Shown here: positions 13,779 through 61,159 of the stretch, in pieces
How the letters are laid out: the number at the start of each line of letters is the position of its first letter
Numbering within the stretch: the stretch's first letter is position 1
Origin: Patescibacteria group bacterium
GTDB lineage: Bacteria; Patescibacteriota; Microgenomatia; UBA10105; UBA927
Assembly: GCA_023379025.1 (NCBI GenBank)
Contig: JAMCTH010000003.1
Location: 17,114 to 81,113 of the forward strand
DNA: 64,000 nucleotides
Reading direction: 5' to 3'
Translations under genes and position numbers: made by a program
Notes under the pieces: generated by a model
What the model was told of the DNA's origin: nothing
Seen by the model: the letters and a program-made list of their open reading frames with translations, nothing else
Database searches by the model: none

Positions 13779-15452
13779 CTATCGGGATGCGATAACCATA
13801 GCCGGCGATCCGTCAAGGTAGCGTATGGTAAGAAGTCCCGGTCCGGGTATTTCCCGCGGCGTTCCGATATAGAGTGTCGGCCCGTCAGGCTTTTCCGTAC
13901 TCCAGTGAATGGGGCGGAACTCGTAATTTTCAAGTGAATTCCTGTCTTCCGCAAATCCTCCCGATCGTGTACCGCCCCGGGCAAGATATGCTGCCGGATC
14001 ATACCGCAGGTAAAACAGAAAAAACATATACGGCTGCTCGAGCCTGGTGGATACGACGACGTGGGTATACTCATTATGATGGGCGTCAGCGTATGCTACG
14101 GCCTCTTTGTACCCATACTGCCAATACTGCGAATACTCCTCATCCGTATGACCGAAATACATATGGAGGTAGTACGCGATGTTTAACGCGGCAAACAAAA
14201 GAGAGCACGAGACACCGAAAACCACTGCGGCACGGCCAAGCGCCGGCTGCCGTTTCCTGAACAATCCTCCGATCCGCCCGACAGACTCCCCCACTCCCAC
14301 GGCGGCAAAAATCTGAAATGCCGGAAGAAATACGAGGGTACGTATGGCATGGGGAAGCTCTGTGGTCGGCGCCGCGGCAACCGGCGCGATAAGGAACCAA
14401 CTCCAGAGCACCCCCGCCATCCTGCCTCCTTTTCTGGTCACGAGAAACATACCATACAAAAGAAACGGAAGCTCCCAGAGATACAGAAGTCCCATGCCCG
14501 GAGCATGGTGGCGGGCATTATCTCCGGTCAGGAACAGCCATTTGAAAGAAAAGTGGGACAGGTACCCGTTTATGAGCGTCTCGGCCCACACGATCCTCCT
14601 GTTGTCCAGGATTTTTCCCCACCAGATTCCGTGGGTCTTATCATATTCGAGTTTTGTGACGCTTCTAGTGAGAAGCCCTGTTTCGTCGGCAAGAGCACTC
14701 GTCCCCTGGAGTCTGGTTATGGCGTCTTTATTCGTGACAACAGGAAGAAGCGGAAGTACCGTCAGCATTCCGACAAGAAAAAACAGCACGGCTGACCGTT
14801 TCCCTGAAAAAAATTGCTTCCGGAAAAGAACCAGGAGCACGAGCGCCATGAGCGGCAAAAAAACGCGTTCACTGTGGTACGCATAAAGCCCCAGACCGAG
14901 AAGAAATGCAGAAACAGGGAGGTACATACGGTTTCTGAGTCCTTTCAGAAAAAGTGCGATTGCCCAGATATTGATGGTCAGACCGACATTTGCCTCAAAC
15001 GCGATCCTCGAAAACTGTATATGCCAGGGTGAAAGCGCAAGAAGAAGCGCCGCAAAAGACGGCACATCTATACCGAGATACTTTTTCCGGGTTAAACCCC
15101 CCGCGTCGAGAAGTAGGCCAGTCAGAACATACACGCCGGCGATGGCAAGAACGCCGGCGATGGCGGACGGGAGGCGGACGGCCCAGACGTTCAATCCAAA
15201 CAGAGCTACGCTCGGAATGGTGAGATAGGCGTAAAGCGGGGGTTTATAATCATCAAACGACCGAAGGACCAGGGGGTATTTCGTCCCGTATTCATCCCTT
15301 CCCGTTTTGAGTATGGAATATGCATTGTACCCCAAAGCCGCTTCATCCCAGTCCGGACTCGGAGGCACCGCACCCAATGCCCAAAACCGGAGCACCGCCC
15401 CTATGAGGAGTGCGGCAAAAAAAAGTTTCAGCGGACCGGCAGTCGGTTTCAT
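13779..15452 (-). CDS. Family-D GT39/PMT_2-type membrane glycosyltransferase
   Basis: 557 aa with the motif WDEAALGYNAYSILKTGRDEYG. It is the tandem paralog of the previous gene. Confidence 0.75.
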   Translation of the reverse strand: MKPTAGPLKLFFAALLIGAVLRFWALGAVPPSPDWDEAALGYNAYSILKTGRDEYGTKYPLVLRSFDDYKPPLYAYLTIPSVALFGLNVWAVRLPSAIAGVLAIAGVYVLTGLLLDAGGLTRKKYLGIDVPSFAALLLALSPWHIQFSRIAFEANVGLTINIWAIALFLKGLRNRMYLPVSAFLLGLGLYAYHSERVFLPLMALVLLVLFRKQFFSGKRSAVLFFLVGMLTVLPLLPVVTNKDAITRLQGTSALADETGLLTRSVTKLEYDKTHGIWWGKILDNRRIVWAETLINGYLSHFSFKWLFLTGDNARHHAPGMGLLYLWELPFLLYGMFLVTRKGGRMAGVLWSWFLIAPVAAAPTTELPHAIRTLVFLPAFQIFAAVGVGESVGRIGGLFRKRQPALGRAAVVFGVSCSLLFAALNIAYYLHMYFGHTDEEYSQYWQYGYKEAVAYADAHHNEYTHVVVSTRLEQPYMFFLFYLRYDPAAYLARGGTRSGGFAEDRNSLENYEFRPIHWSTEKPDGPTLYIGTPREIPGPGLLTIRYLDGSPAMVIASR

Positions 15453-17065
15453 ACGTCAAACAAAACAAGCGCCGGTTTCCCGTCCAATAGGCGCACGGTA
15501 TTGATCACATGCGCGCCTTCCGGCACCTCTTCCGGCGGCAGGATATAAAGTGTATGCGGTTCAAACGATGACGGAGTCGCTTCCACAAAATGGTATTTGC
15601 CGAATGCCGTCACGTGATAAAACCCGGCTGCGTCAAAATAGGCGTGTTTGCTGACCAGAAATGCCATGGGGTTATACCGTTCATAGAAGAGCGTATACAT
15701 ATACGCCCGGCCTATCGATTCGGTAAGCACTATCGATGAGTAGGTATTGCCGGTCTTATTTGCGTCGGCAAGGGCCTGTTTATACCCGTATTGCCACTCA
15801 CCGGAATATTCCCAAGGGTAGTGAATGTAATAGTTATGGAGGTAATAGGCAATATTACCCAGGTACAGAAACAGCACCAGCGCCACGAGAATGGAGCCGA
15901 AACGCGCTTTCCTCATGCCCTCAAGAAACCGGGAAAGCCCCGCGGCGATCACGAGCAAAAAAACCGGCAGACCGTCTTCAATCCTGAGCGCATGCGGGGT
16001 TTCGCGGGCAGTTGCCGCAGGGACAATCGCCATGACCAGCCACCAGAGGAGAAACCATCCGGCGCCGGGAGTCCTCCCCATGATCCAATACACTCCGAGA
16101 AGAAGGAACGGAAGATCAACGAGATACAGTTCTCCGATATCCTGAATGGAAAATTTGGGATTTCCGTCTCCGGTGATAAACAGGAACCGCGGCTCAAGAT
16201 TGTCAAAAAAATGTTCGAGGAACGACCGTGTATACCCTATCCTTCTGTTATGGACGAGCTTTGCCCACCAGGTGTTCCCGTCCACCGCTGAGCGCATATT
16301 TGCGGTTGCCACGATTGAGGCATCGGTAAAGATATTGACCTCATTAAACCTGAGACGCGCCTGTCTGGAAAGAAGGTGCGGAATAATCGGCAGAAGCAGT
16401 AATATGCCGATAAGGACCCCCGACGCCAAAAATTTCTTATGCCCCATAATGTCCCGGCGTACAGAGACAAAAAGCCCGAGAGCCAGAAACGGACCGAAAT
16501 ATCTGGCACTGTTGAACGTATATACACCCATGACGAACGGTATCCAGCACGCAAGGAGGACTTGCGGATGACGCCGGGCCAACAACACCAGATACGCGCC
16601 GAGCACCATGAGACCTGTAGCGATATTTGCCTCAAAACCGGCGCGCGACAACTGTATACTCCACGGAGACAGCGCAAATACAAGAGCTGCCGGAAGCGGT
16701 ATGTTTGACTTCCTGCCGAAAAGTTCCCGGCCAAGCGCAAAAAGCGCAAGAATCGTGAGCGTTCCGGCAACAGCAGACGGCAGACGGACTGCAAGCTCGG
16801 TAAGTCCCAGAAAAGCTACAAACGGCACGGTCGCATAAATAGCAAGCGGAGGCTTGTAATCCCCGTATGCGATGAACGTATCCACCGGCAAGAACCTGCC
16901 GTGTTCGTCTTTTCCCGTTTTGAGGATGCTGTATGCGTTATAACCGATTGACACCTCATCCCAGGACAGGGAAGGCGGGTTCGTATCAACATGCCACACC
17001 CTGAGGAAAAACCCTATGGCAACGATACCGGTGAGGAGTATCCATGTACGGACGGCTCTGTTCAT
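15449..17065 (-). CDS. Family-D GT39/PMT_2-type membrane glycosyltransferase
   Basis: The motif is WDEVSIGYNAYSILKTGKDEHG. The start is trimmed from 17389 to internal Met109, which gives an ATGA overlap with the upstream gene's stop. Coordinates from track arithmetic may be off by 1 against the printed numbering here. Confidence 0.7.
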   Translation of the reverse strand: MNRAVRTWILLTGIVAIGFFLRVWHVDTNPPSLSWDEVSIGYNAYSILKTGKDEHGRFLPVDTFIAYGDYKPPLAIYATVPFVAFLGLTELAVRLPSAVAGTLTILALFALGRELFGRKSNIPLPAALVFALSPWSIQLSRAGFEANIATGLMVLGAYLVLLARRHPQVLLACWIPFVMGVYTFNSARYFGPFLALGLFVSVRRDIMGHKKFLASGVLIGILLLLPIIPHLLSRQARLRFNEVNIFTDASIVATANMRSAVDGNTWWAKLVHNRRIGYTRSFLEHFFDNLEPRFLFITGDGNPKFSIQDIGELYLVDLPFLLLGVYWIMGRTPGAGWFLLWWLVMAIVPAATARETPHALRIEDGLPVFLLVIAAGLSRFLEGMRKARFGSILVALVLFLYLGNIAYYLHNYYIHYPWEYSGEWQYGYKQALADANKTGNTYSSIVLTESIGRAYMYTLFYERYNPMAFLVSKHAYFDAAGFYHVTAFGKYHFVEATPSSFEPHTLYILPPEEVPEGAHVINTVRLLDGKPALVLFDV

Positions 17066-18366
17066 GTTTTTTGTGTGTCCCAAAACTTGAGGACTGCCAG
17101 CATAAAAAGCGTCGCAAGAAATGCCATGTGGCTGTTGTTGAAATACCTGCTGAAATACCAGATGACCGAAAGCGTTACGGCATAGCCCACGAGAAGATGC
17201 GGCGTATCGGGATGTTTCAGGTAGTACCGGAGGGACCAGAGTAGCACGGGAATCCCTAAGCCAAGCTGCCAGAATGCGAACGGATAATAGGCATGGATGT
17301 CGCGGATCAGCCTGAATTCGTAGAGCACCATTCCGAACCCGTAGCCGGATATCGGATAGCTGCCGGCGGTATTGCCCGAAAGATACCATACCGTGCTGTC
17401 AAGAAATGCTTTCGGGTCCCAGAGAAGAAACGGTCCGGCAACGACGGCAACGACGCCGGCAAGGACGGCAAGACCGGGGAGCATCCTCCGGACGGAACCG
17501 CCGTATGACACCCATAATGCCAGAAGATATCCGGGTATTGCTATCCAGATGGTCTGTTTTGAAAGTACGGCAAGCGCAAATAGCGCCGCGGAAAGGACGC
17601 GTTGTTTCCGTTCCAGAAGAAAAATTGCCAGTATATACCAGAAAAGCGCAAATGTATCGCTTCTTCCCTGGATGAAATAGTCGACGACTCCGGGAGAAAG
17701 CGCCGTCAGTATAGCGGCCAGCCGGAAAAGCGGCGGGTGGGAAAACCATTTCCGATACACCAGGATAAGTCCGGCAAGGCAAAAAAGAAGCACCATCCTC
17801 CCGTCGAAATACCCGATGGTGTGGTTTGCGAGAAAATAAAACGGAAACGGGAACAGGAGATACCACGGCGGCATGACAAAGTGATAGAGCGCGGGATTGA
17901 CTGCGGGCTTTCCCAGCTCATCGTAATGAAAGGCCTCTACCGGCGTACCGAAATAGGTTTCCTTGTAGGGATTTTTGTGGAGTATGAGATAGCGCATCGC
18001 CGCTTCCTGCTGAAGGATGATGTCATGGACACCCCATACCGGGGCAACCCCGTGACGGTCAACGATCGCCGTCACGGTAGCGCCCCCGACGACGATACAG
18101 AGGGCCGCTCCCAGAAGGAGGTTCCTCAACGCTTCCGAGGAGTACCAGGACTTCGCCCGGATAAAAAGCGCGAGGAGAATCCCGCTCGTGAGAAGAACAA
18201 ACAATAATCCGAAAAGCCAGTACGGCGTTCCCTGTATCGGCAGAATCCGGTAGGTCATGACTACCGGCACGGACAAAATCATGAGAAGGACAAACTCAAA
18301 AGCCGGAAACCAAGTCATAGTGGCCATTGTACTAGATCTTATCTCCTTCTCCAACCGCGCTTTCAT
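17062..18366 (-). CDS. Polytopic membrane protein of about 430 aa, unknown type (possible DUF2029/GT87-like GT-C)
   Basis: 434 aa with at least 10 TM helices. It is aromatic-rich (NPYKETYFG, HYDELGKP) and has ATGA overlaps at both ends. Confidence 0.4.
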   Translation of the reverse strand: MKARLEKEIRSSTMATMTWFPAFEFVLLMILSVPVVMTYRILPIQGTPYWLFGLLFVLLTSGILLALFIRAKSWYSSEALRNLLLGAALCIVVGGATVTAIVDRHGVAPVWGVHDIILQQEAAMRYLILHKNPYKETYFGTPVEAFHYDELGKPAVNPALYHFVMPPWYLLFPFPFYFLANHTIGYFDGRMVLLFCLAGLILVYRKWFSHPPLFRLAAILTALSPGVVDYFIQGRSDTFALFWYILAIFLLERKQRVLSAALFALAVLSKQTIWIAIPGYLLALWVSYGGSVRRMLPGLAVLAGVVAVVAGPFLLWDPKAFLDSTVWYLSGNTAGSYPISGYGFGMVLYEFRLIRDIHAYYPFAFWQLGLGIPVLLWSLRYYLKHPDTPHLLVGYAVTLSVIWYFSRYFNNSHMAFLATLFMLAVLKFWDTQKT

Positions 18367-25546: not shown

Positions 25547-25680
25547 CTACTGAAGAAACCTTTAAGTTAATTTTTTTCTCCGAGTCTTTTTCTTCGTTCT
25601 CCACCTAAGGAAATTACTGCCTATCAATACTTTATGGTTACGTCGGAAAAAACCAAGTTGTACGGCGTGAAAAACTGTAG

Positions 25681-25866
25681 TTAGTCAAAAATTACTTTAT
25701 TTGAGGAGTAATTTTTTCTGTAGTTTTCGACAATCTCCATCTGCATCTTGTTAGATTCATGCAAGGCACGTTTAATTATCCGCTTTTTTTCTTTTGCGGG
25801 GTAATCAAAGTATGAACGACCCGTTGATACTTTGCCGGTAAGCTTCCTGATAATATTCCTGATCAT
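25681..25866 (-). CDS. Small basic hypothetical protein (61 aa) coupled to the zeta-like gene
   Basis: It lies in the AT-rich island, and its ATG overlaps the zeta-like 3' ORF stop as ATGA. I recognised no motif. Confidence 0.3.
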   Translation of the reverse strand: MIRNIIRKLTGKVSTGRSYFDYPAKEKKRIIKRALHESNKMQMEIVENYRKNYSSNKVIFD

Positions 25867-26578
25867 ATCTCTAATTTATATTGATCCAATGCCTTAGACA
25901 AGGATTCTGGAGTATACCCCAAATTTACATACTTATCAACATTATGCACGTTAAAATCAGACTTTTCAATACCCTTCAGTATGTTCTTCTTAATAACAGT
26001 AACCTCTATTTCTGGGTATACTCGCTTAATTTTGGCTACTGTATCTAAGGCGTCAAAAAAAGATTTTAGAAAAAATCCTTGGGTATAGGTCTTCCTTCTA
26101 ATTTTTCTCTTTTTTTTGTTAATCCCCACGATACCAACGGATCTTGATAAATATATACAATTGATATTTTACGCTTATGCTTAATACACCTTTTAATATT
26201 AGCTTCTGCATGATCATATTGAGACATTGTGGAGTCAAGCAAAAAATCAATATCATTTGCAAATACATGGTCAAGTAATTTGTTTACCCCCGCATAAGCC
26301 GCACCCTGAATTTCCATAGCATTTGTCTTATTGTATTGCGGAAGGAAATCCCTTATTTCATCGGCATCTATCCGAACAATATGGCGTGAATTATCATGTT
26401 CACATAGCTGCTGAATAAAGGCTTTAGAATATTCAGTTTTTCCAGCACCTGGAGAGCCAGACATAAAGAATGCTGCGGGGTTCGAAACTGTTAGATAAAT
26501 ATCGGGATCAGCGAAACGTTTAATGAGTTCCTTCTTGTGAGATCTAATAAACAGTACGGCATCATCACTTTTACTCAT
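25863..26578 (-). pseudogene. Zeta-toxin-family P-loop kinase gene interrupted by a -1 frameshift (or slippage site)
   Basis: The 5' ORF 26066..26578 has a Walker A motif GSPGAGKT and an RIDADEIRDFLPQY segment like zeta/PezT. Its 3' continuation is a second ORF, 25863..26129, in the -1 frame. The two frames meet at an A8 run, acaaaaaaaagag. Confidence 0.6.
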
Positions 26579-26735
26579 TGCGGTTAATTATACAACATGA
26601 TTATTTAGCAAACCTATCTGTAGGTAATTCACCATACGCTCTGTCGATAAGAATCGATACAACTCCACCCACGAGGCTATGTCTGTGTTCGAAAATCACT
26701 CCCTCCGCCTCGTCTCCTCAAAAAAACTATCCTGC

Positions 26736-54044: not shown

Positions 54045-54518
54045 CTACGTTATATTTGCATTGGTTATCGGCATTCCCTGCACCCAATCATAGCCGATCT
54101 CCGTATCCTTATATGCGATTCTTCCTTCCTCCCGGGTGTCATAGGTTCCGCTCGTGACATACACCAGTTCTGCCGGACCCTTCAGAACCTTCAGGCCGTG
54201 GGCAACGCCGTGCGGAATTTTCAGTATGATATCTCGTCCTTCTTCGCCCAACAGGTACTCTTCCGTCGTTTTGTGCGTCGGTGATCCGGATCGTCTGTCA
54301 TGGAGGACTGCTTTGATCGTGCCTTTGACCACATACCACCAGTCAATCTGGGTCTTGTGGATATGCCACGCTTTGACAACACCGGTCACCATGGATGAAC
54401 GCGAAAGCTGTCCGAACCCTTCGGAAAAAAACGGATCCGTCACCCGTATGAGTTCTTCAAAAAATCCCCGCTCGTCCGGATGACGGACCAGTTCCTTTAT
54501 GGCAACGCCGTCTATCAT
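54045..54518 (-). CDS. rmlC: dTDP-4-dehydrorhamnose 3,5-epimerase
   Basis: 157-aa cupin protein with HPDERGFFEE, the RmlC signature, and WHIHK. Confidence 0.8.
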   Translation of the reverse strand: MIDGVAIKELVRHPDERGFFEELIRVTDPFFSEGFGQLSRSSMVTGVVKAWHIHKTQIDWWYVVKGTIKAVLHDRRSGSPTHKTTEEYLLGEEGRDIILKIPHGVAHGLKVLKGPAELVYVTSGTYDTREEGRIAYKDTEIGYDWVQGMPITNANIT

Positions 54519-55256: not shown

Positions 55257-55511
55257 TTAGATGCGCAGCACGGTCGACAGGAGGACAATGGCAAGCGCAC
55301 TGACAAGCATATATTCTATCACAACCTTCCGGTGGAGGTCGCCCCGTGCCGCATGATGGATGATTCCCCACAGAAAATAGGCAACCGACGTAACCGCTCC
55401 CACCAAAAACTGCGCCGTCGGATTTCCGCGCAGGACCCAAAAAAGCCCTAACCCGCCGCCCAATATGATGACCAGTATGGCAAAATGTAGAATTTTTTCC
55501 GGTGCTTTCAT
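55257..55511 (-). CDS. Small membrane protein (84 aa, 3 TM helices), unknown function
   Basis: Trimmed to Met39 at 55511, giving an ATGA overlap with the CAP-domain gene's stop. It is hydrophobic throughout. Confidence 0.4.
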   Translation of the reverse strand: MKAPEKILHFAILVIILGGGLGLFWVLRGNPTAQFLVGAVTSVAYFLWGIIHHAARGDLHRKVVIEYMLVSALAIVLLSTVLRI

Positions 55512-56464
55512 AGGATGCTCCCGCGGACAAATATCGCCATACCGACAAAAAGTACGCCAAGAAAAAGCAAATGCCCGACGCTGTGACCGGTCACGCGTAC
55601 CAACCGGCGTCTTCCGGCAAGCCATGCGTCAAGGAAAAGAACGGTAAGGAGAAACAGCAAAAATCCGGCGACCAGCAACCGGTTAAGGCCCGTTATGTCG
55701 AGAGCCGGGCTCGTCAATACCGATGAAAATCCGGAAACGACCGGAGGATTGTGGGAGAAGGAGGCTGCAGAAGGCACCTCGACAGCCTTAACCGCTGCGG
55801 CCGGTACGGGAGTGATCGCTAGAGTCGGATTTGTCGGCACCGGGGTCGGCGCGAGAGCCACAGTCTTGGCTGTAGTAGTCGGTGCGTTTCCTGCCAGTTC
55901 CGCGGGTGTTGCCCCGAACATCTGGACGACCAGCGTCGTTTCCTCGCCGTTTAAGGTTCCGTTGACGACGGCAAAGCCTATGTCGCGGTACCCGGTCTTG
56001 AGCATATTTTCCCTGTGGCTTGGCGATGCCATCCAGGCATCAACCACGGCCTGGCTGGTCGAAAAATTCTTTGCGAGATTTTCGCCGGCCAGTGCATAGG
56101 AATACCCCGATCCCACGATAAAATCCCATGGGGTCTTCCCCTCGGGACTCTGGTGCGCCCAGTAATTATTGGCAAACATATCCTGAGCCTTGGCAGCTGC
56201 GGCATTGTCCAGCTCACCGTTTATGCTAAGAGGCTGTAAACCATTGGCTTCGCGCGCCGCATTGGTATCGGCAAGGAGCGCATCAATCCTGATATCCGTC
56301 GCATACCCCAAAACATTGGGGTCAACAGCGTGCACCAAACCGAAGAAAACCCTGAGCCCGGCAAACACGAGAACGAACAAAAAAAGCGCATCAGGGTGGA
56401 GCACTCTCGCACGGTGATTATTGGTCTCATGCGGCATGAGGAGATGACGAAGGATATGTCCCAT
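55508..56464 (-). CDS. CAP/SCP/PR-1-like domain protein with an N-terminal TM helix, a Pro/Thr/Ala linker and a C-terminal TM anchor
   Basis: 318 aa. The CAP-like core has LSINGELDNAAAAKAQDM and NYWAHQSPEG. It also has a linker TPVPTNPTLAITPVPAAA and a C-terminal hydrophobic segment. Confidence 0.6.
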   Translation of the reverse strand: MGHILRHLLMPHETNNHRARVLHPDALFLFVLVFAGLRVFFGLVHAVDPNVLGYATDIRIDALLADTNAAREANGLQPLSINGELDNAAAAKAQDMFANNYWAHQSPEGKTPWDFIVGSGYSYALAGENLAKNFSTSQAVVDAWMASPSHRENMLKTGYRDIGFAVVNGTLNGEETTLVVQMFGATPAELAGNAPTTTAKTVALAPTPVPTNPTLAITPVPAAAVKAVEVPSAASFSHNPPVVSGFSSVLTSPALDITGLNRLLVAGFLLFLLTVLFLDAWLAGRRRLVRVTGHSVGHLLFLGVLFVGMAIFVRGSIL

Positions 56465-56505: not shown

Positions 56506-56838
56506 TCAGGAGGAATACCGGTCATGTTCGTAATGGAGCGGAATGTCTTCGCCCGCAGGTTTTCCGTTGACCGGAACATCCAGGAGAAACCCAAGCATTT
56601 TCCCGACCGTCATACCGACGCGCAAGCCGGTAAATGATCCCGGACCGGTATTAACCCTAATCTCCGTCAGTTTTTTAAGCTCCAAATGGTTTTCTTTAAG
56701 GACCTTCTCAATCATCGGCAACACCATTTGTGCTTTCGCGCCCTGTTTAACTATTTTTGCTATTTTATTTCCTCCGATTCCAACACTAACGTTTATTTTT
56801 TCCGAATCGGAAGTATCAATAAAAAGAATATTAGACAT
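56506..56838 (-). CDS. tsaB: TsaB/YeaZ-like t6A biosynthesis protein, short form (N-terminal domain only)
   Basis: 110 aa. It has ILFIDTS and the TsaB/YeaZ signature TGPGSFTGLRVGMTVGKMLG. It stops after about half of a normal TsaB. Confidence 0.55.
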   Translation of the reverse strand: MSNILFIDTSDSEKINVSVGIGGNKIAKIVKQGAKAQMVLPMIEKVLKENHLELKKLTEIRVNTGPGSFTGLRVGMTVGKMLGFLLDVPVNGKPAGEDIPLHYEHDRYSS

Positions 56839-57061
56839 ATAAAAAATCTAGGTAATATTTTCTGCTATCCACCGATCAATCGGGATAGTTTGATCGTATA
56901 TAATAACGTCTTCACCAGTTCCAGGTTCTTCAAAATCTAACTAAAAGATATTGAGTGGGTTTAGTCATAGCCTAATTATATACCGCTGACGAGTATATTT
57001 GCGCTACCCACCCCCTGCCTAGTTGCTCTTTTGGGTTGGAGTAGCTATCATATAATCAGTT

Positions 57062-58030
57062 ATGCCTGAAGCAATCCTTGAAGAACCGGCAAGAACAAAG
57101 GAACTAACGCCTTTAGCGCTTGCTCGAGGATGGTTAAATTTTAGGGCGGCAGAAGTAAGAAAAGAACTAAGGTCAGCAGAAGGATCGAGACAATTCGTCA
57201 GCACCTACAAATCAGAGCCAGTAATCCGTCCTTCAAATGTTGAAGTTGGCAGTATGGATGATTCTGATTGGACTGTTGCGGAGTTAGAGCATGAGCAGTG
57301 GCCAGAAGAACAAGAAGCCCAATTAGAACAACTCGATGAGAGATTGGATGAATTATATGATCAGCAATCTACTATCGCGGATCACAGAAAACGTATTAAC
57401 AAAGGAGATACTGATCTCATAAATCAATTTGCCCAGCTAGAAAAGGACAGGCTCAAAAAACTCGAGGATGCGCGGAAGCTCGAAGAGGCCCTCAAACAAG
57501 GATTTGTGTTTGAAGGAGTAGAAGAGGTAGTGACAAACTTAGATCACATTACAAACGTGGTCGGAAATGATCAAGTTGGCGCTGACTCAGCATTAGCAAA
57601 TGGCTGGAGACTCGTACAACACTACCCGCGTGAAGTCCTTCGCTACAGCAGCACAGGAGAACCCTACGGAGAAAATCCTGAACAATTTCAATTGTACTAC
57701 ACGCCTGATCCAGAGGCCGGAGACAGAAATGTATTCATGAGAATGTACGTCAGAGATACTGAATATGAACTCGTCATAGAAGATTTTCGGGATAGGCAAA
57801 ATGCGGATAGTATCTACGGAAAAGCAACGAAAGCTACAAAGGGTACTTGCCTATCGCTTTCGATTGAAAATGGGAGAATATTCAGACCGTGGACTGGAAC
57901 AGTAATAGAAGATGCTAGGTGGGGATACCCGGAAACTCATCATGTTGAAGGAAGTTATAACTTTACCCAAGAACACTTCGATCAAGTTAAAACGCTCATC
58001 GCCTCTCTTGCTGCTGGCATAGATACATAA
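57062..58030 (+). CDS. Hypothetical protein, acidic coiled-coil N-terminus, on the AT-rich island
   Basis: 322 aa. It is the only convincing plus-strand ORF in the island. Its composition is low-GC like its surroundings. I recognised no motif. Confidence 0.5.
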   Translation: MPEAILEEPARTKELTPLALARGWLNFRAAEVRKELRSAEGSRQFVSTYKSEPVIRPSNVEVGSMDDSDWTVAELEHEQWPEEQEAQLEQLDERLDELYDQQSTIADHRKRINKGDTDLINQFAQLEKDRLKKLEDARKLEEALKQGFVFEGVEEVVTNLDHITNVVGNDQVGADSALANGWRLVQHYPREVLRYSSTGEPYGENPEQFQLYYTPDPEAGDRNVFMRMYVRDTEYELVIEDFRDRQNADSIYGKATKATKGTCLSLSIENGRIFRPWTGTVIEDARWGYPETHHVEGSYNFTQEHFDQVKTLIASLAAGIDT

Positions 58031-58057
58031 GTAAAACCTCAAGCTAGCTGATGCTTC

Positions 58058-58560
58058 TTATAACATTCTATGTCCACCGCCGACATAAATTTTTTGTCCA
58101 GTGAGCCAGCGGGCTTGGTCGGAAGCTAGAAATAATATGACATCAGCTACATCTTCCGGTGGCCCAATCTGACGAAGCGGAATACTTGGTATCATTTCTT
58201 TTTCCATGGTAGAAGAAATCCAGCCGGTTTGAACCGGACCTAACGAAACGATGTTTGCGGTAACCCCATAGGGCCTAACTCCAAAGCAGCAGAGACCGTA
58301 TTGGTGATGTAAAAACCGTCAATAGCAATTGTTTTTTTTATCTGACGTTTGGGGAAGAAACGTATCAGCCAGACAATATGCCGCATTGTTGACAATAATC
58401 TCCACCGGTCCGAATGTTTTCTCAACACGATCAAAAAGTTCAGGGATCACTTTTGGATTAGACAAATCTGCCTCCCACGCTTCAACTTTAACGCTCTGTT
58501 TGGGCATTGATTCAATAACTTCTCCGGCATCTTTGCCTGCTGGATACGGTAATACGACTC
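58058..58560 (-). pseudogene. Decayed short-chain dehydrogenase/reductase (FabG-like) gene fragment
   Basis: The minus-strand translation gives VEIIVNNAAY (ORF 58319..58507). In another frame the C-terminus reads ASDQARWLTGQKIYVGGGH (58068-58124). The N-terminal Rossmann segment is missing. Confidence 0.55.
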
Positions 58561-58662
58561 ACCCGGTGTAGCGTCTGTCTCAGCAGACTGGTTTGGAAGC
58601 CGTAAATAGGTGATTAAAACTGCTGAAGTCTAGACTAGGTCGATTCTCGATAAAATCTCACT

Positions 58663-58890
58663 TTACAACTGATTAACCACGTAGTAATCAATCAGTCTCC
58701 TGATCATAGCCTGATATGAAGCACCGTGCTTTCGAGCTTTGTCTTTAAAAAATTTCAGGCTTTTTTCGGTGAGCGTAAGCGTCACTTTAGATCTCTTTTC
58801 TTTCAGAACTAAGTCCTCCTGCTTGGGTAAAAAATCACTGATCACCTTCGCCCCAACCGGTTCGCCGGTGTATTTGATTTTCCTTTTCAT
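58663..58890 (-). CDS. brnA: BrnA-type antitoxin (ribbon-helix-helix)
   Basis: The C-terminus KFFKDKARKHGASYQAMIRRLIDYYV resembles BrnA antitoxins. It is trimmed to Met12, but still overlaps brnT by 56 nt. The Met1 start at 58923 is the alternative. Confidence 0.55.
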   Translation of the reverse strand: MKRKIKYTGEPVGAKVISDFLPKQEDLVLKEKRSKVTLTLTEKSLKFFKDKARKHGASYQAMIRRLIDYYVVNQL

Positions 58891-59149
58891 ATATTTTTTT
58901 GCCTTTTCTCCAATACCCCGCACCTATAACCCGAATGCGTTTAGCTCTATAGGTAAATCGGACAGTGAAGACACCTCCTTTCACTTTTCCGAAACAATAA
59001 TACCGTTCTTCCTCCTTGCCATGAAGTAAATCTTTAGCAATTACGCGATTTTTATCAAGAAAAGCAAATTGGGCTATTTTAAAATCAATACCATGCTTCT
59101 TCCTGTTTTCCTTATTTTTATCTTCATCCCACTCAAAAGACGTTTTCAT
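58835..59149 (-). CDS. brnT: BrnT-type toxin (RelE/ParE superfamily ribonuclease)
   Basis: 104 aa with FEWDEDKNKENRKKHGIDF and RIRVIGAGYWRKGKK segments like BrnT toxins. It sits directly upstream of brnA. Confidence 0.6.
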   Translation of the reverse strand: MKTSFEWDEDKNKENRKKHGIDFKIAQFAFLDKNRVIAKDLLHGKEEERYYCFGKVKGGVFTVRFTYRAKRIRVIGAGYWRKGKKIYEKENQIHRRTGWGEGDQ

Positions 59150-59188
59150 AAATATAGTACCATCTAGCCATATTTTTTACCATATTCT
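59150..59188 (-). promoter_or_regulatory. Putative brnTA promoter/operator in the 39-nt gap after tsaC
   Basis: The minus-strand sequence reads AGAATATGGTAAAAAATATGGCTAGATGGTACTATATTT-ATG. It has an extended -10-like TGGTACTAT 4 nt before the ATG, which would make the mRNA leaderless. It has a direct repeat AATATGG x2. Confidence 0.25.
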
Positions 59189-59815
59189 TCATGGTTGTCC
59201 TAATTTCACCGCTCCCTGACGGATAATTTTATAAGGCTTGACGCTGCAATCAACTACGGTTGAGGCCTGACCGGCGCTCGTTTCACCCGGGACAACCAGA
59301 TCAACCAGTTTAACGAATTCCGGATCGAGGTCCTCTGAGCGATAGGGAGTCTTCTCTCGGTGAAAGTTGGCTGACGTACCCAAAATCGGGACACCGACTC
59401 CTCTAATAATTGCTAAAGCGGTCTCGTGATTCGGCATACGTAAACCGGCCGTCTCGCCGCCGCCGCGGATAGGGGAGTAGACCATCTCTTTCATACACCG
59501 ATATATAATAGTAAGCGCACCGGGCCAATACAGTTTCATATAACGTCGTACAATATCGGAAGGATGATCAAAATAGGGTAGTGCCATCGCTTCCGAACCC
59601 GCAAGAACCGGTACCGCCTGCGTACGCGGGCGTTTTCTCAGAGCAAACAATCGGTCGACACTCTCCGGCCGGTCAATCCGGCACCCTATGCCAAAGGCGG
59701 TATCGGTCGGATAAATGATAATTCCGCCGGCATTTAGTACCCGGACTGCTTTTTTGATCATAGATTTTTTTGTTTCCGTATTTTTTATCACCATGTTACG
59801 TTGCTGAAGTGTCAT
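59189..59815 (-). CDS. tsaC: L-threonylcarbamoyladenylate synthase (TsaC/YrdC type)
   Basis: It has the YrdC core GGIIIYPTDTAFGIGC. The longest ORF is given, but the first 18 codons are AT-rich and Met19 (59761) is the more likely start. Confidence 0.75.
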   Translation of the reverse strand: MTLQQRNMVIKNTETKKSMIKKAVRVLNAGGIIIYPTDTAFGIGCRIDRPESVDRLFALRKRPRTQAVPVLAGSEAMALPYFDHPSDIVRRYMKLYWPGALTIIYRCMKEMVYSPIRGGGETAGLRMPNHETALAIIRGVGVPILGTSANFHREKTPYRSEDLDPEFVKLVDLVVPGETSAGQASTVVDCSVKPYKIIRQGAVKLGQP

Positions 59816-59847: not shown

Positions 59848-60309
59848 TCAGCGTTTTTTTTCTGTAATAATTTGATGCGTACCGTTGTCGAAAACCGAAA
59901 AACGGACATCCGTCCGCTCACCGGGTAATACACATCCCAGCTTTTCCGCCCACTCGACAATCACAATATGCTGAGGGTCAGAAAATATTTCCGTAATGCC
60001 AAGGCTGTCCAGTGCTTCGGCCGACGGCAAACGATAGAGATCCAGGTGATAGAGGAAGGAACCGAAATTGTTCAGCAAACGGTAACGTCGTACAATAATA
60101 AAGGTGGGAGAGGGGAGGCGGCAGGAAATGCCAAGTCCCCTTGCGAACCCCCGGACGAATGTTGTTTTCCCGCTGCCCAGTGCCCCGTACAGGCAATATA
60201 CGCGGGCTACTCCCGCTCTCCCCTTCTCCCCGGCCAGTTTTTGCCCTATTTCAGAGCCAAAATCAGCGGTTTCTGCTGCCGAACGGGTAATCCGCACGGT
60301 TGGCGTCAT
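59848..60309 (-). CDS. tsaE: tRNA threonylcarbamoyladenosine biosynthesis ATPase TsaE (YjeE)
   Basis: It has LYGALGSGKTTFVRGFARGLG as P-loop and an SPTFIIV segment. It is trimmed from the 314-aa ORF to Met162. The upstream 160 codons are an R/P-rich low-complexity readthrough of high-GC DNA. Confidence 0.75.
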   Translation of the reverse strand: MTPTVRITRSAAETADFGSEIGQKLAGEKGRAGVARVYCLYGALGSGKTTFVRGFARGLGISCRLPSPTFIIVRRYRLLNNFGSFLYHLDLYRLPSAEALDSLGITEIFSDPQHIVIVEWAEKLGCVLPGERTDVRFSVFDNGTHQIITEKKR

Positions 60310-60316
60310 AGCGGCA

Positions 60317-61159
60317 TTATACACCCTGCCGCACATTCCGAAGCGTAAATCCCAGGCACGCACACCCGAGGCCGGCGCCGATGAGAAGGATCGAAATGAT
60401 ATACGCGGACGGCGGTTCGGATCCGAGGAGCAGGGAACCGGAAGTAGCCTGACCCGCCGGCGTTCCCGCACGGAAGCTCTCGGAAAATGTGTCACTGCTC
60501 CTGAAGATACCGGCGACACTTCCTGTTTTATCAAGGGTCCTGCCTGAAGCTGCCGGGGACTGCGGTATCTCTGTCGGAGGGGGCGTTTCGACAGGTGTTG
60601 CCGTCGGCGCCGGGGATATCTGCGGAGCGGGAGTCGCGGTCGGTACCGGGGGAGGGGCAGGTGTTGCCGTCGGGGTAGGACTCGGCGTCGGGGTAGGCCC
60701 GGTAATCCGGACGGTCTGCTCCGGAGACCAGCTGACGCTGCAGCTGCCCGTGTATCTGCCGATTTTGAATAAATACTCCCCCGGCCCTTCATAGAGCGGG
60801 CTTTCTTTGTCCGGTTTCACCGTCACTGCCCCGCTCCATGTCCCTTCCGGACTGAGCATATCGGATAAAACGGGAATATACTGCGTGCAGTTTCCGCCCG
60901 GCGCGTTTACCCAGGATCCGTCCGGATGCTTCGTATACCCGAAGTATTTCGTTCCCCCGATGTAGAATACCCCGCGCAGATACGACGTACTGGTGCAGCC
61001 CGCACACACGAGTGTTACCCGGACATCAAACTCTCCGTTTTCATCCGTTTCGAGAGGTACGGAATCAATCGCAACCCCTGCCGCACGGATCGATAGCGGA
61101 GCCGCAAGAGAAACTGCCGCAAGCAGAATACCGCACAATACCCCGGGGAGCGCATTCAC
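60317..61159 (-). CDS. Cell-surface protein with a signal peptide, small Cys-containing domain, Pro/Thr-rich linker and C-terminal TM anchor
   Basis: 280 aa. The N-terminus LCGILLAAVSLAAPLSIRAAG is signal-like. The linker is TGPTPTPSPTPTATPAPPPVPTATPAPQISPAPTATPVETPPPTEIPQSP. The C-terminus YIISILLIGAGLGCACLGF is hydrophobic. Confidence 0.6.
   Translation of the reverse strand: MNALPGVLCGILLAAVSLAAPLSIRAAGVAIDSVPLETDENGEFDVRVTLVCAGCTSTSYLRGVFYIGGTKYFGYTKHPDGSWVNAPGGNCTQYIPVLSDMLSPEGTWSGAVTVKPDKESPLYEGPGEYLFKIGRYTGSCSVSWSPEQTVRITGPTPTPSPTPTATPAPPPVPTATPAPQISPAPTATPVETPPPTEIPQSPAASGRTLDKTGSVAGIFRSSDTFSESFRAGTPAGQATSGSLLLGSEPPSAYIISILLIGAGLGCACLGFTLRNVRQGV

Follow-up and report, generated by a model that had tools for sequence, protein, structure and literature searches.

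The genes tsaE, tsaC and tsaB of the N6-threonylcarbamoyladenosine (t6A) set are encoded on the minus strand of contig JAMCTH010000003.1 from an uncultivated Patescibacteria group bacterium, within a stretch of 64,000 nucleotides that is referred to here as the window (all positions are those of this stretch unless a relative is named). Between tsaC and tsaB lie 2.35 kb of low-GC DNA in a genome of about 54% GC, and the compositional boundary on the tsaB side falls inside the gene itself. The interval is probably a hotspot for horizontal gene transfer flanked by core genes, the content of which is swapped by recombination in the flanking genes, leaving an intact tsaB of mosaic origin. Four observations bear on this reading: the interval is an insertion relative to the ancestral gene order, its cargo varies among sister genomes, relics of sister cargo persist in it, and the base composition breaks within tsaB.

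A variable interval between tsaC and tsaB

Elsewhere in Microgenomates, at nine loci (L011-L013, L015-L019, L026), the genes tsaE, tsaC, tsaB and that of a CAP-domain membrane protein are contiguous, and the gap between tsaC and tsaB measures 3-83 bp. Relative to this ancestral order the DNA at 56839-59188 is an insertion, with 42.0% GC versus 54.0% for the native part of the window. Downstream, the order tsaB-CAP-DUF5656-rmlA is kept in all relatives. Cargo between tsaC and tsaB is found only in the window genome and in a sister clade, the closest one (TsaB 52-59% identical to that of the window; host GC 44-46%); among the matches listed, Gottesman-, Levy-, Woese- and Daviesbacteria (Microgenomates) are the nearest relatives with a name.

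The sister clade keeps tsaE-tsaC on one side and tsaB-CAP-DUF5656-rmlA on the other, and what stands between them differs by lineage. Locus L003 carries 7.8 kb (a short-chain dehydrogenase/reductase (SDR), a hydrolase, a methyltransferase, two AAA_33/zeta-like kinases, an AAA ATPase, a TPR protein and Bro-N), L005 0.9 kb (AbiEii), L007 2.0 kb (Bro-N and two hypothetical proteins) and L009/L010 1.0 kb (a zeta-like kinase and DUF5678). Five different cargo sets are found at this junction (window, L003, L005, L007, L009), every relative has different genes beside tsaB and tsaC, and the GC content of the sister cargo is 38-41%, that of its hosts 45-47%. A 318-aa gene without a Pfam match is found in one sister lineage on the opposite strand between tsaE and tsaC (L005 5513-6469; L006 3245-4201), so that the tsaE|tsaC junction can also take cargo.

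The whole island of the window can be assigned: it consists of brnT, brnA, an SDR pseudogene, a gene for a 322-aa acidic protein and a kinase relic (Table 1). Two of these match genes of the sister cargo. The SDR pseudogene aligns by tblastn with residues 35-288 of the L003 SDR over three frames with an internal gap; it has frameshifts and an internal deletion and lacks its N-terminus. Its last 71 aa are 86% identical to the L003 protein, and at the nucleotide level the identity is 75-79%, versus 67-74% for the flanking core genes. It is the ortholog of the intact L003 SDR, which directly follows tsaC. The kinase relic comprises 29 codons and a stop, ends 10 nt upstream of the tsaB start and is 52-55% identical to the extreme C-termini of the zeta-like kinases of L003 and L009 (E = 6e-6 and 8e-7). 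In these two relics the island shares ancestry with the sister-clade cargo. Zeta-like/AAA_33 (KTI12-like) kinases recur in the tsaC|tsaB gap, with two copies in L003 (4022-4540, 6552-7079), one in L009 (7078-7587), one in L010 (2858-3373) and the relic of the window; those of L003 and L009 are 80% identical.

The brnT product, the ribonuclease toxin of a type II toxin-antitoxin pair, matches PF04365 with 76.1 bits (cut-off 34.5). Compared with homologs of 93-95 aa it has a C-terminal extension of about 10 residues, and this extension overlaps brnA. The putative antitoxin open reading frame (ORF) at 58663-58923 matches CopG_antitoxin, BrnA_antitoxin and RHH_1 with 16-20 bits, below the Pfam cut-offs; a 75-aa form starting at 58890 also overlaps brnT, and a 75-aa gene is likewise called in L091. 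Across many Microgenomates orders (Woese-, Davies-, Levy-, Blackburn-, Gottesman- and Curtissbacteria), BrnT homologs share 70-87% identity with the window protein, whereas core proteins reach only 45-55%. Since this identity is far above that of core genes, the module is mobile within Microgenomates, and brnTA may be a widely circulating toxin-antitoxin module.

The other intact cargo gene encodes the 322-aa protein, which has no match in Pfam, NCBIfam, PADLOC or PHROGs. A word-indexed search returned one homolog only, and an exhaustive HMMER search found a family of 57 cluster representatives at no more than 47% identity, the homologs elsewhere lying in unrelated contexts. In another genome they adjoin PIN/Phd toxin-antitoxin genes. 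The AlphaFold2 model (pLDDT, the predicted local distance difference test, 90.9) has long N-terminal helical hairpins followed by a C-terminal antiparallel beta-sheet domain; a fold search with it gave only generic coiled-coil matches, with no specific relative and no recombinase fold. The gene shares with brnT a GC content at third codon positions (GC3) of about 0.36.

Much of this outline had been anticipated by an original prediction made from the sequence of the window. Its gene identities and coordinates are correct (tsaE, tsaC, tsaB, the brnT/brnA pair, the decayed SDR gene and the plus-strand hypothetical gene), with a weak antitoxin match, and the synteny comparison bears out its claim that low-GC DNA was inserted into the t6A set. 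It also placed a composition switch inside tsaB after codon 50-60, which is right as to the gene; the synonymous breakpoint lies nearer codon 40.

The compositional boundary inside tsaB

Where does the imported DNA end on the tsaB side? For the change-point analysis, island models were built from the island without tsaB and native models from the native DNA of the window. With base composition and Markov models the left boundary is placed at 56649 (support 56622-56684); moving it to the tsaB start codon costs 8-12 log-likelihood units. When synonymous codon choice is modelled conditional on the amino acids, the change point is codon 40 (56718; support codons 24-52). The GC3 expected from the amino-acid sequence and native codon usage is 0.57 +/- 0.075, and codons 2-40 have 0.256 (z = -4.2, P < 5e-5). 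The remainder of the gene is native-like with a GC3 of 0.57 (z = +0.24 for codons 41-61, z = -0.39 for codons 62-110). Codons 1-40 (GC 0.333, GC3 0.275) lie below all 4,922 native 40-codon blocks, and no native gene has a GC3 below 0.40 in its first 40 codons.

Part of the raw step belongs to the gene family. In orthologs the 5' part of tsaB is 3.8 +/- 3.8 points under the GC of the locus and the 3' part 6.6 +/- 3.8 points over it, and codons 41-61 are AT-rich in every ortholog. Given this gradient, about half of the raw GC step is built into the protein. The original prediction had proposed such a comparison as a check on its boundary: an intrinsic gradient exists, yet over 24 orthologs there is no systematic step at synonymous sites (-0.292 in the window versus -0.011 +/- 0.082; z = -3.4, the most extreme of 25), so that the comparison does not refute the boundary. 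Across the same 24 orthologs the GC of codons 1-40 tracks host GC (slope 1.06, r = 0.83), and the window falls 5.4 residual standard deviations (sd) under the prediction for a host of 54% GC, a prediction that extrapolates past the highest host GC sampled. Codons 1-40 correspond to a source genome of about 37 +/- 3% GC. On these grounds tsaB appears to be a mosaic, with about 40 imported codons at its start and a native remainder, which agrees with the chimeric tsaB with an island-like 5' part put forward earlier.

Codons 36-44 form the best-conserved nucleotide stretch of the gene, a near-identical block of 27 nt, within which the 14-nt run TGCCGATGATTGAG is identical in the window and in four sister genomes. 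The synonymous-site change point at codon 40 falls within this block.

Alternatively, there may be no mosaic: the AT-rich 5' part of tsaB would be intrinsic or locally selected, through a preference for AT-rich amino acids, a need for little mRNA folding around the start codon or the demands of a promoter or of regulation once the operon was split, and the island would end at the tsaB start codon. The ortholog gradient (-3.8/+6.6 GC points), the codons 41-61 that are AT-rich in all relatives, two orthologs (L020, L015) with GC3 steps of about -0.2 and the lack of a protein-level anomaly in TsaB would all fit. However, the GC3 of codons 2-40 is 4.2 sd under native expectation, a value unmatched by the first 40 codons of any native gene, and the window step is the most extreme of 25 genomes; moreover, codons 1-40 have the amino-acid composition expected from a genome with about 37% GC. 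Start-proximal effects normally extend over about 10-15 codons, not 40. We regard an unmixed tsaB as unlikely.

Several points do weigh against a mosaic tsaB made by recombination. The mosaic is deduced from composition, because the searched collections hold no donor, no island-free close relative and no genome of the same genus; the best TsaB homolog is 57-61% identical, and among 5.8 billion proteins no TsaB exceeds 61% and no donor was found. The original prediction had proposed looking for a drop in similarity to orthologs; at the protein level the N-terminal part shows no anomalous drop, and such tests are uninformative at this divergence: the ratio of N- to C-terminal identity is ordinary (rank 67/120, with 119 homologs), and the closeness of residues 1-40 to the sister clade (distance ratio 1.22 versus 1.5-1.8) is not significant. 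The codon-usage log-likelihood ratio (LLR) of the tsaB prefix, 6.0, is not beyond that of every native gene when naive ORF starts are used; of the native values, at least the largest stems from faulty ORF calling. A donor of about 37% GC would be divergent, and a RecA-dependent crossover within a conserved block of about 27 nt would be inefficient. On the other side of the island the tsaC signal is weak, a mild gene-wide depression of GC3, and the N- and C-terminal halves are alike in protein distances. An apparent third mosaic at ORF 15449-17389 was rejected as an over-extended ORF start. A scan for promoter and terminator consensus sequences gave no enrichment over shuffled sequences, and no promoter could be assigned upstream of tsaB.

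The right-hand boundary is less sharp. Simple composition puts it at about the tsaC stop (59186-59273), which is 39 bp from brnT, and an order-2 Markov model at 59416. The composition of tsaC is intermediate between native and island DNA, its GC3 being 0.49 where 0.61 is expected (codons 2-105, z = -2.2; codons 106-190, z = -2.7), and both its GC and its GC3 equal those of sister-clade tsaC. The last 85 codons form the best island-like suffix, with an LLR of 9.5, whereas none of 38 native genes exceeds 4.2. The imported DNA may stop where tsaC ends, reach part of the way into the gene or take in all of it. TsaC at first seemed unusually near the sister clade (distance ratio 1.2 versus 1.5-2.5 for other genes); this was gone with outgroup normalisation. 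The GC3 of tsaE shows no significant difference from native expectation (z of about -1.2).

The tsaB gene was described earlier as short, which it is at 110 codons, but it is not truncated. Homologs of 100-115 aa number in the hundreds and match the window protein over its full length, so the shortness is a trait of the Microgenomates clade, unrelated to the island. Window TsaB covers positions 1-90 of the 212 of TIGR03725 (the dimerisation subunit of the t6A complex), that is, the N-lobe, and does not show the two-lobed ASKHA fold. Helices that contact TsaD lie in the N-lobe (PMC9654439). The invariant residues D8, T9, Q37, L40 and P41 and the PGSFTG.R.G motif are present, the PGSFTG motif being universal. 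The usual TsaB is two-lobed, with about 210-230 aa, and no paper was found that discusses the short TsaB (about 100-115 aa) of Microgenomates.

Recombination in the flanks and its alternatives

The history that we favour begins with a variable region that would have opened in one sub-clade of Microgenomates (Patescibacteria). This hotspot would hold changing toxin-antitoxin and defence-like genes drawn from a pool of about 38-42% GC common to the sister genomes. The present content would have come on DNA of a lower-GC relative with the same tsaC-cargo-tsaB layout, an unsampled donor of about 37% GC, taken up perhaps by natural competence. Incorporation would have been the work of the cell's own recombination machinery acting in the flanks (homologous, homeologous or homology-facilitated illegitimate), not of a site-specific integrase. 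One crossover would have fallen inside tsaB, at or near codons 36-44, making the first 40 or so codons donor and the remainder native. Because the implied donor is quite divergent, this join may have been homeologous or microhomology-mediated (homology-facilitated illegitimate recombination). Since tsaB is needed, selection would retain a junction only if it left the gene in frame and functional.

Double recombination at flanking core genes has been described as a route by which hotspots diversify, particularly in transformable bacteria (PMC5635113). The locus matches the signature of such hotspots in having conserved flanks, differing cargo with shared relics, no mobility gene and apparently foreign sequence in a flanking gene. 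Patescibacteria are reported to keep homologous-recombination genes together with competence and pilus systems (PMC12455944). Within the population itself, a contig of a conspecific (L001, SRR10252151) differs at 35 positions, 27 of which lie within 170 bp (54211-54381) of an rmlC-like gene (54045-54518). The cluster looks like a short recombination or gene-conversion tract, and from these 27 clustered substitutions recombination appears to be active in this population.

Could the island instead be a decayed integrative element, inserted at the 5' end of tsaB and bringing its own replacement 5' end and promoter? SXT/R391 integrative conjugative elements sit in this way at the 5' end of prfC, for which they supply a new 5' coding end and promoter. 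A similar arrangement was proposed in the original prediction, by analogy with islands that restore the 3' ends of tRNA genes. The foreign tract does cover the start codon, the upstream region and about 40 tsaB codons, as restoration of a 5' end would leave it, and loss of an integrase is conceivable in an island with decayed genes. However, scans of the island against Pfam, NCBIfam, PADLOC and PHROGs and tblastn searches revealed no integrase, transposase or other recombinase domain in any frame, and, as the 2.35 kb is fully accounted for by cargo and relics, there is no room for one. End repeats are also missing: the region searched holds direct or att-like repeats only at chance level (12-24 nt at 70-80% identity), and a repeat of the tsaB 5' segment, which the original prediction had suggested looking for near 59150-59190, is found neither there nor elsewhere in the region. 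No second or displaced native 5' fragment of tsaB was found in the island, and the 39 bp between brnT and the tsaC stop hold no such remnant. Scans of the region for tRNA, tmRNA and Rfam families gave no match. The sister genomes, furthermore, differ both in cargo and in the genes that abut tsaB and tsaC, and no element with fixed ends recurs. The perturbed composition of tsaC would not be predicted by a one-sided integration either. An integrative element is therefore an improbable source of the tract, and the earlier proposal is not upheld.

A further possibility is vertical inheritance from a lower-GC ancestor, in which the interval and the 5' part of tsaB would have missed the rise to 54% GC, for example through suppression of GC-enriching recombination or gene conversion beside non-homologous cargo and decay of pseudogene relics towards AT. 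The sister clade has 44-46% GC, the same hotspot and orthologous SDR and kinase genes; non-functional relics could drift towards AT, and the composition of tsaC equals that of sister tsaC. Yet the intact brnT and 322-aa genes have a GC3 of about 0.36 despite the same genome-wide pressure, and the tsaB boundary is sharp, native GC3 being regained within about 20 codons. The 5' part of tsaB, with a GC of 0.333, also lies under the 0.44-0.46 of sister genomes, and the 70-87% identity of BrnT across orders with core genes at 45-55% points to mobility. Retention of an ancestral composition is accordingly quite improbable.

More speculative is the idea that either an unrecognised integrase-free system targets tsaB codons 36-44, bringing its own N-terminus and expression signals, or the recurrent zeta-like kinase serves the t6A machinery and is not a toxin; we would rate this as a long shot.

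That the metagenome assembly fused DNA of two organisms where their tsaB and tsaC sequences are conserved is barely credible: the window does come from a metagenome-assembled genome and the tsaB breakpoint does fall at a conserved block, but both junctions and the whole island recur in independent assemblies. In the Logan assembly of SRR10278331 an 82-kb contig is 100% identical over 14.8 kb, the whole region; in that of SRR10252151 one contig is 99.7% identical over 12 kb, including the tsaB junction, and a second holds the tsaC-brnT junction; and a contig of SRR10267473 covers the tsaB junction. Since Logan assemblies made independently from three other runs reproduce them, the junctions are real and not assembly artefacts. 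The SRR10252151 assembly breaks at the brnT/brnA overlap (58886-58898), where its contigs L001 and L092 overlap by only 13 bp, which may reflect a repeat, with several copies of brnTA, or variation between strains.

Neighbouring features and known systems

Table 1. Genes, relics and subregions of the tsaE-CAP segment, in window coordinates
Feature	Position	Strand	Evidence	Remarks
tsaE	59848..60309	-	Pfam TsaE 108 bits, TIGR00150 98.5 bits	native flanking core gene
tsaC	59189..59815	-	TIGR00057 145 bits	right-hand flanking core gene
brnT	58835..59149	-	Pfam BrnT_toxin	intact cargo; ribonuclease toxin of type II toxin-antitoxin pair
brnA/CopG-type (ribbon-helix-helix, RHH) antitoxin ORF	58663..58923	-	weak, sub-cut-off profile matches	putative
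SDR pseudogene	58061..58620	-	tblastn with L003 SDR	ORF fragments 58058-58207, 58319-58507
322-aa acidic protein	57062..58030	+	ORF	intact cargo; no family match
Zeta-like/AAA_33 P-loop kinase relic	56848..56937	-	tblastn	3' end
tsaB (110 aa)	56506..56838	-	TIGR03725 76.6 bits versus cut-off 69.3
tsaB codons 1-40	56719..56838	-	GC, GC3	island-like composition
tsaB codons 36-44 (AQMVLPMIE)	56707..56733	-	DNA alignment	candidate crossover block
tsaB codons 41-110 and stop	56506..56718	-	GC3	native composition
CAP-domain membrane protein	55508..56464	-	Pfam CAP 76 bits	native downstream neighbour of tsaB

Codon usage in the CAP gene is native, and the rml and glycosylation genes come after it. 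For tsaC, NCBI calls a 190-aa form that starts at 59761. The tsaE frame stays open for 161 codons further upstream (59848-60792), over an Arg/Pro-rich stretch of 60-67% GC, and this extension overlaps a same-strand 280-aa ORF (60317-61159) with a Pro/Thr-rich linker; other assemblies call the 153-aa tsaE.

The window contains two low-GC patches, at about 25.5-26.7 kb and at about 56.7-59.2 kb. The first (25550-26700; 31-40% GC) lies between two PMT_2 glycosyltransferase genes and holds a 170-aa P-loop protein of the Zeta_toxin family (26066-26578; 102 bits) and two small ORFs without a family match. It shares nothing but the P-loop with the zeta-like kinase of the tsaC|tsaB interval.

How does the locus compare with known systems? 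As in core-flanked hotspots, the site lies between conserved genes that are adjacent elsewhere, relatives carry differing toxin-antitoxin or defence-like cargo, integrases and transposases are absent, and a compositional signal that looks foreign reaches a flanking core gene. It differs in that the exchange would be between species-level or deeper lineages with large GC differences and not within the pan-genome of a species, in that the donor is unsampled and recombination in the flanks is read from composition and not from phylogenetic incongruence, and in that the hotspot splits a functionally linked t6A gene set. With the SXT/R391-prfC arrangement it shares foreign DNA at the beginning of an essential translation-related gene, taking in its start and first codons and leaving it intact; in contrast, it has no integrase, att repeats, conjugation genes or fixed element, and its cargo of 2.35 kb varies between relatives. 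The brnT/brnA pair resembles BrnT/BrnA modules in its toxin above the Pfam cut-off, the overlapping small RHH gene that follows and the usual toxin-first order, and it departs from them in the weak BrnA/CopG match of the antitoxin and in the C-terminal extension of BrnT by about 10 residues; its toxin-antitoxin activity is putative.

The locus looks like a new example, in Patescibacteria, of a known process, ordinary gene swapping, and not like a new mechanism or a new kind of mobile element. It offers a base-level example of how ultra-small Patescibacteria gain and exchange toxin-antitoxin and defence-like genes where no mobile element can be recognised, and the large difference in GC between host and import (54% versus about 40%) makes a breakpoint visible in an essential tRNA-modification gene. 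The t6A gene cluster tolerates splitting, and the first 40 or so residues of the short TsaB appear to be exchangeable between divergent lineages. The main value of the locus is as a marker for recombination and hotspot turnover in these organisms.

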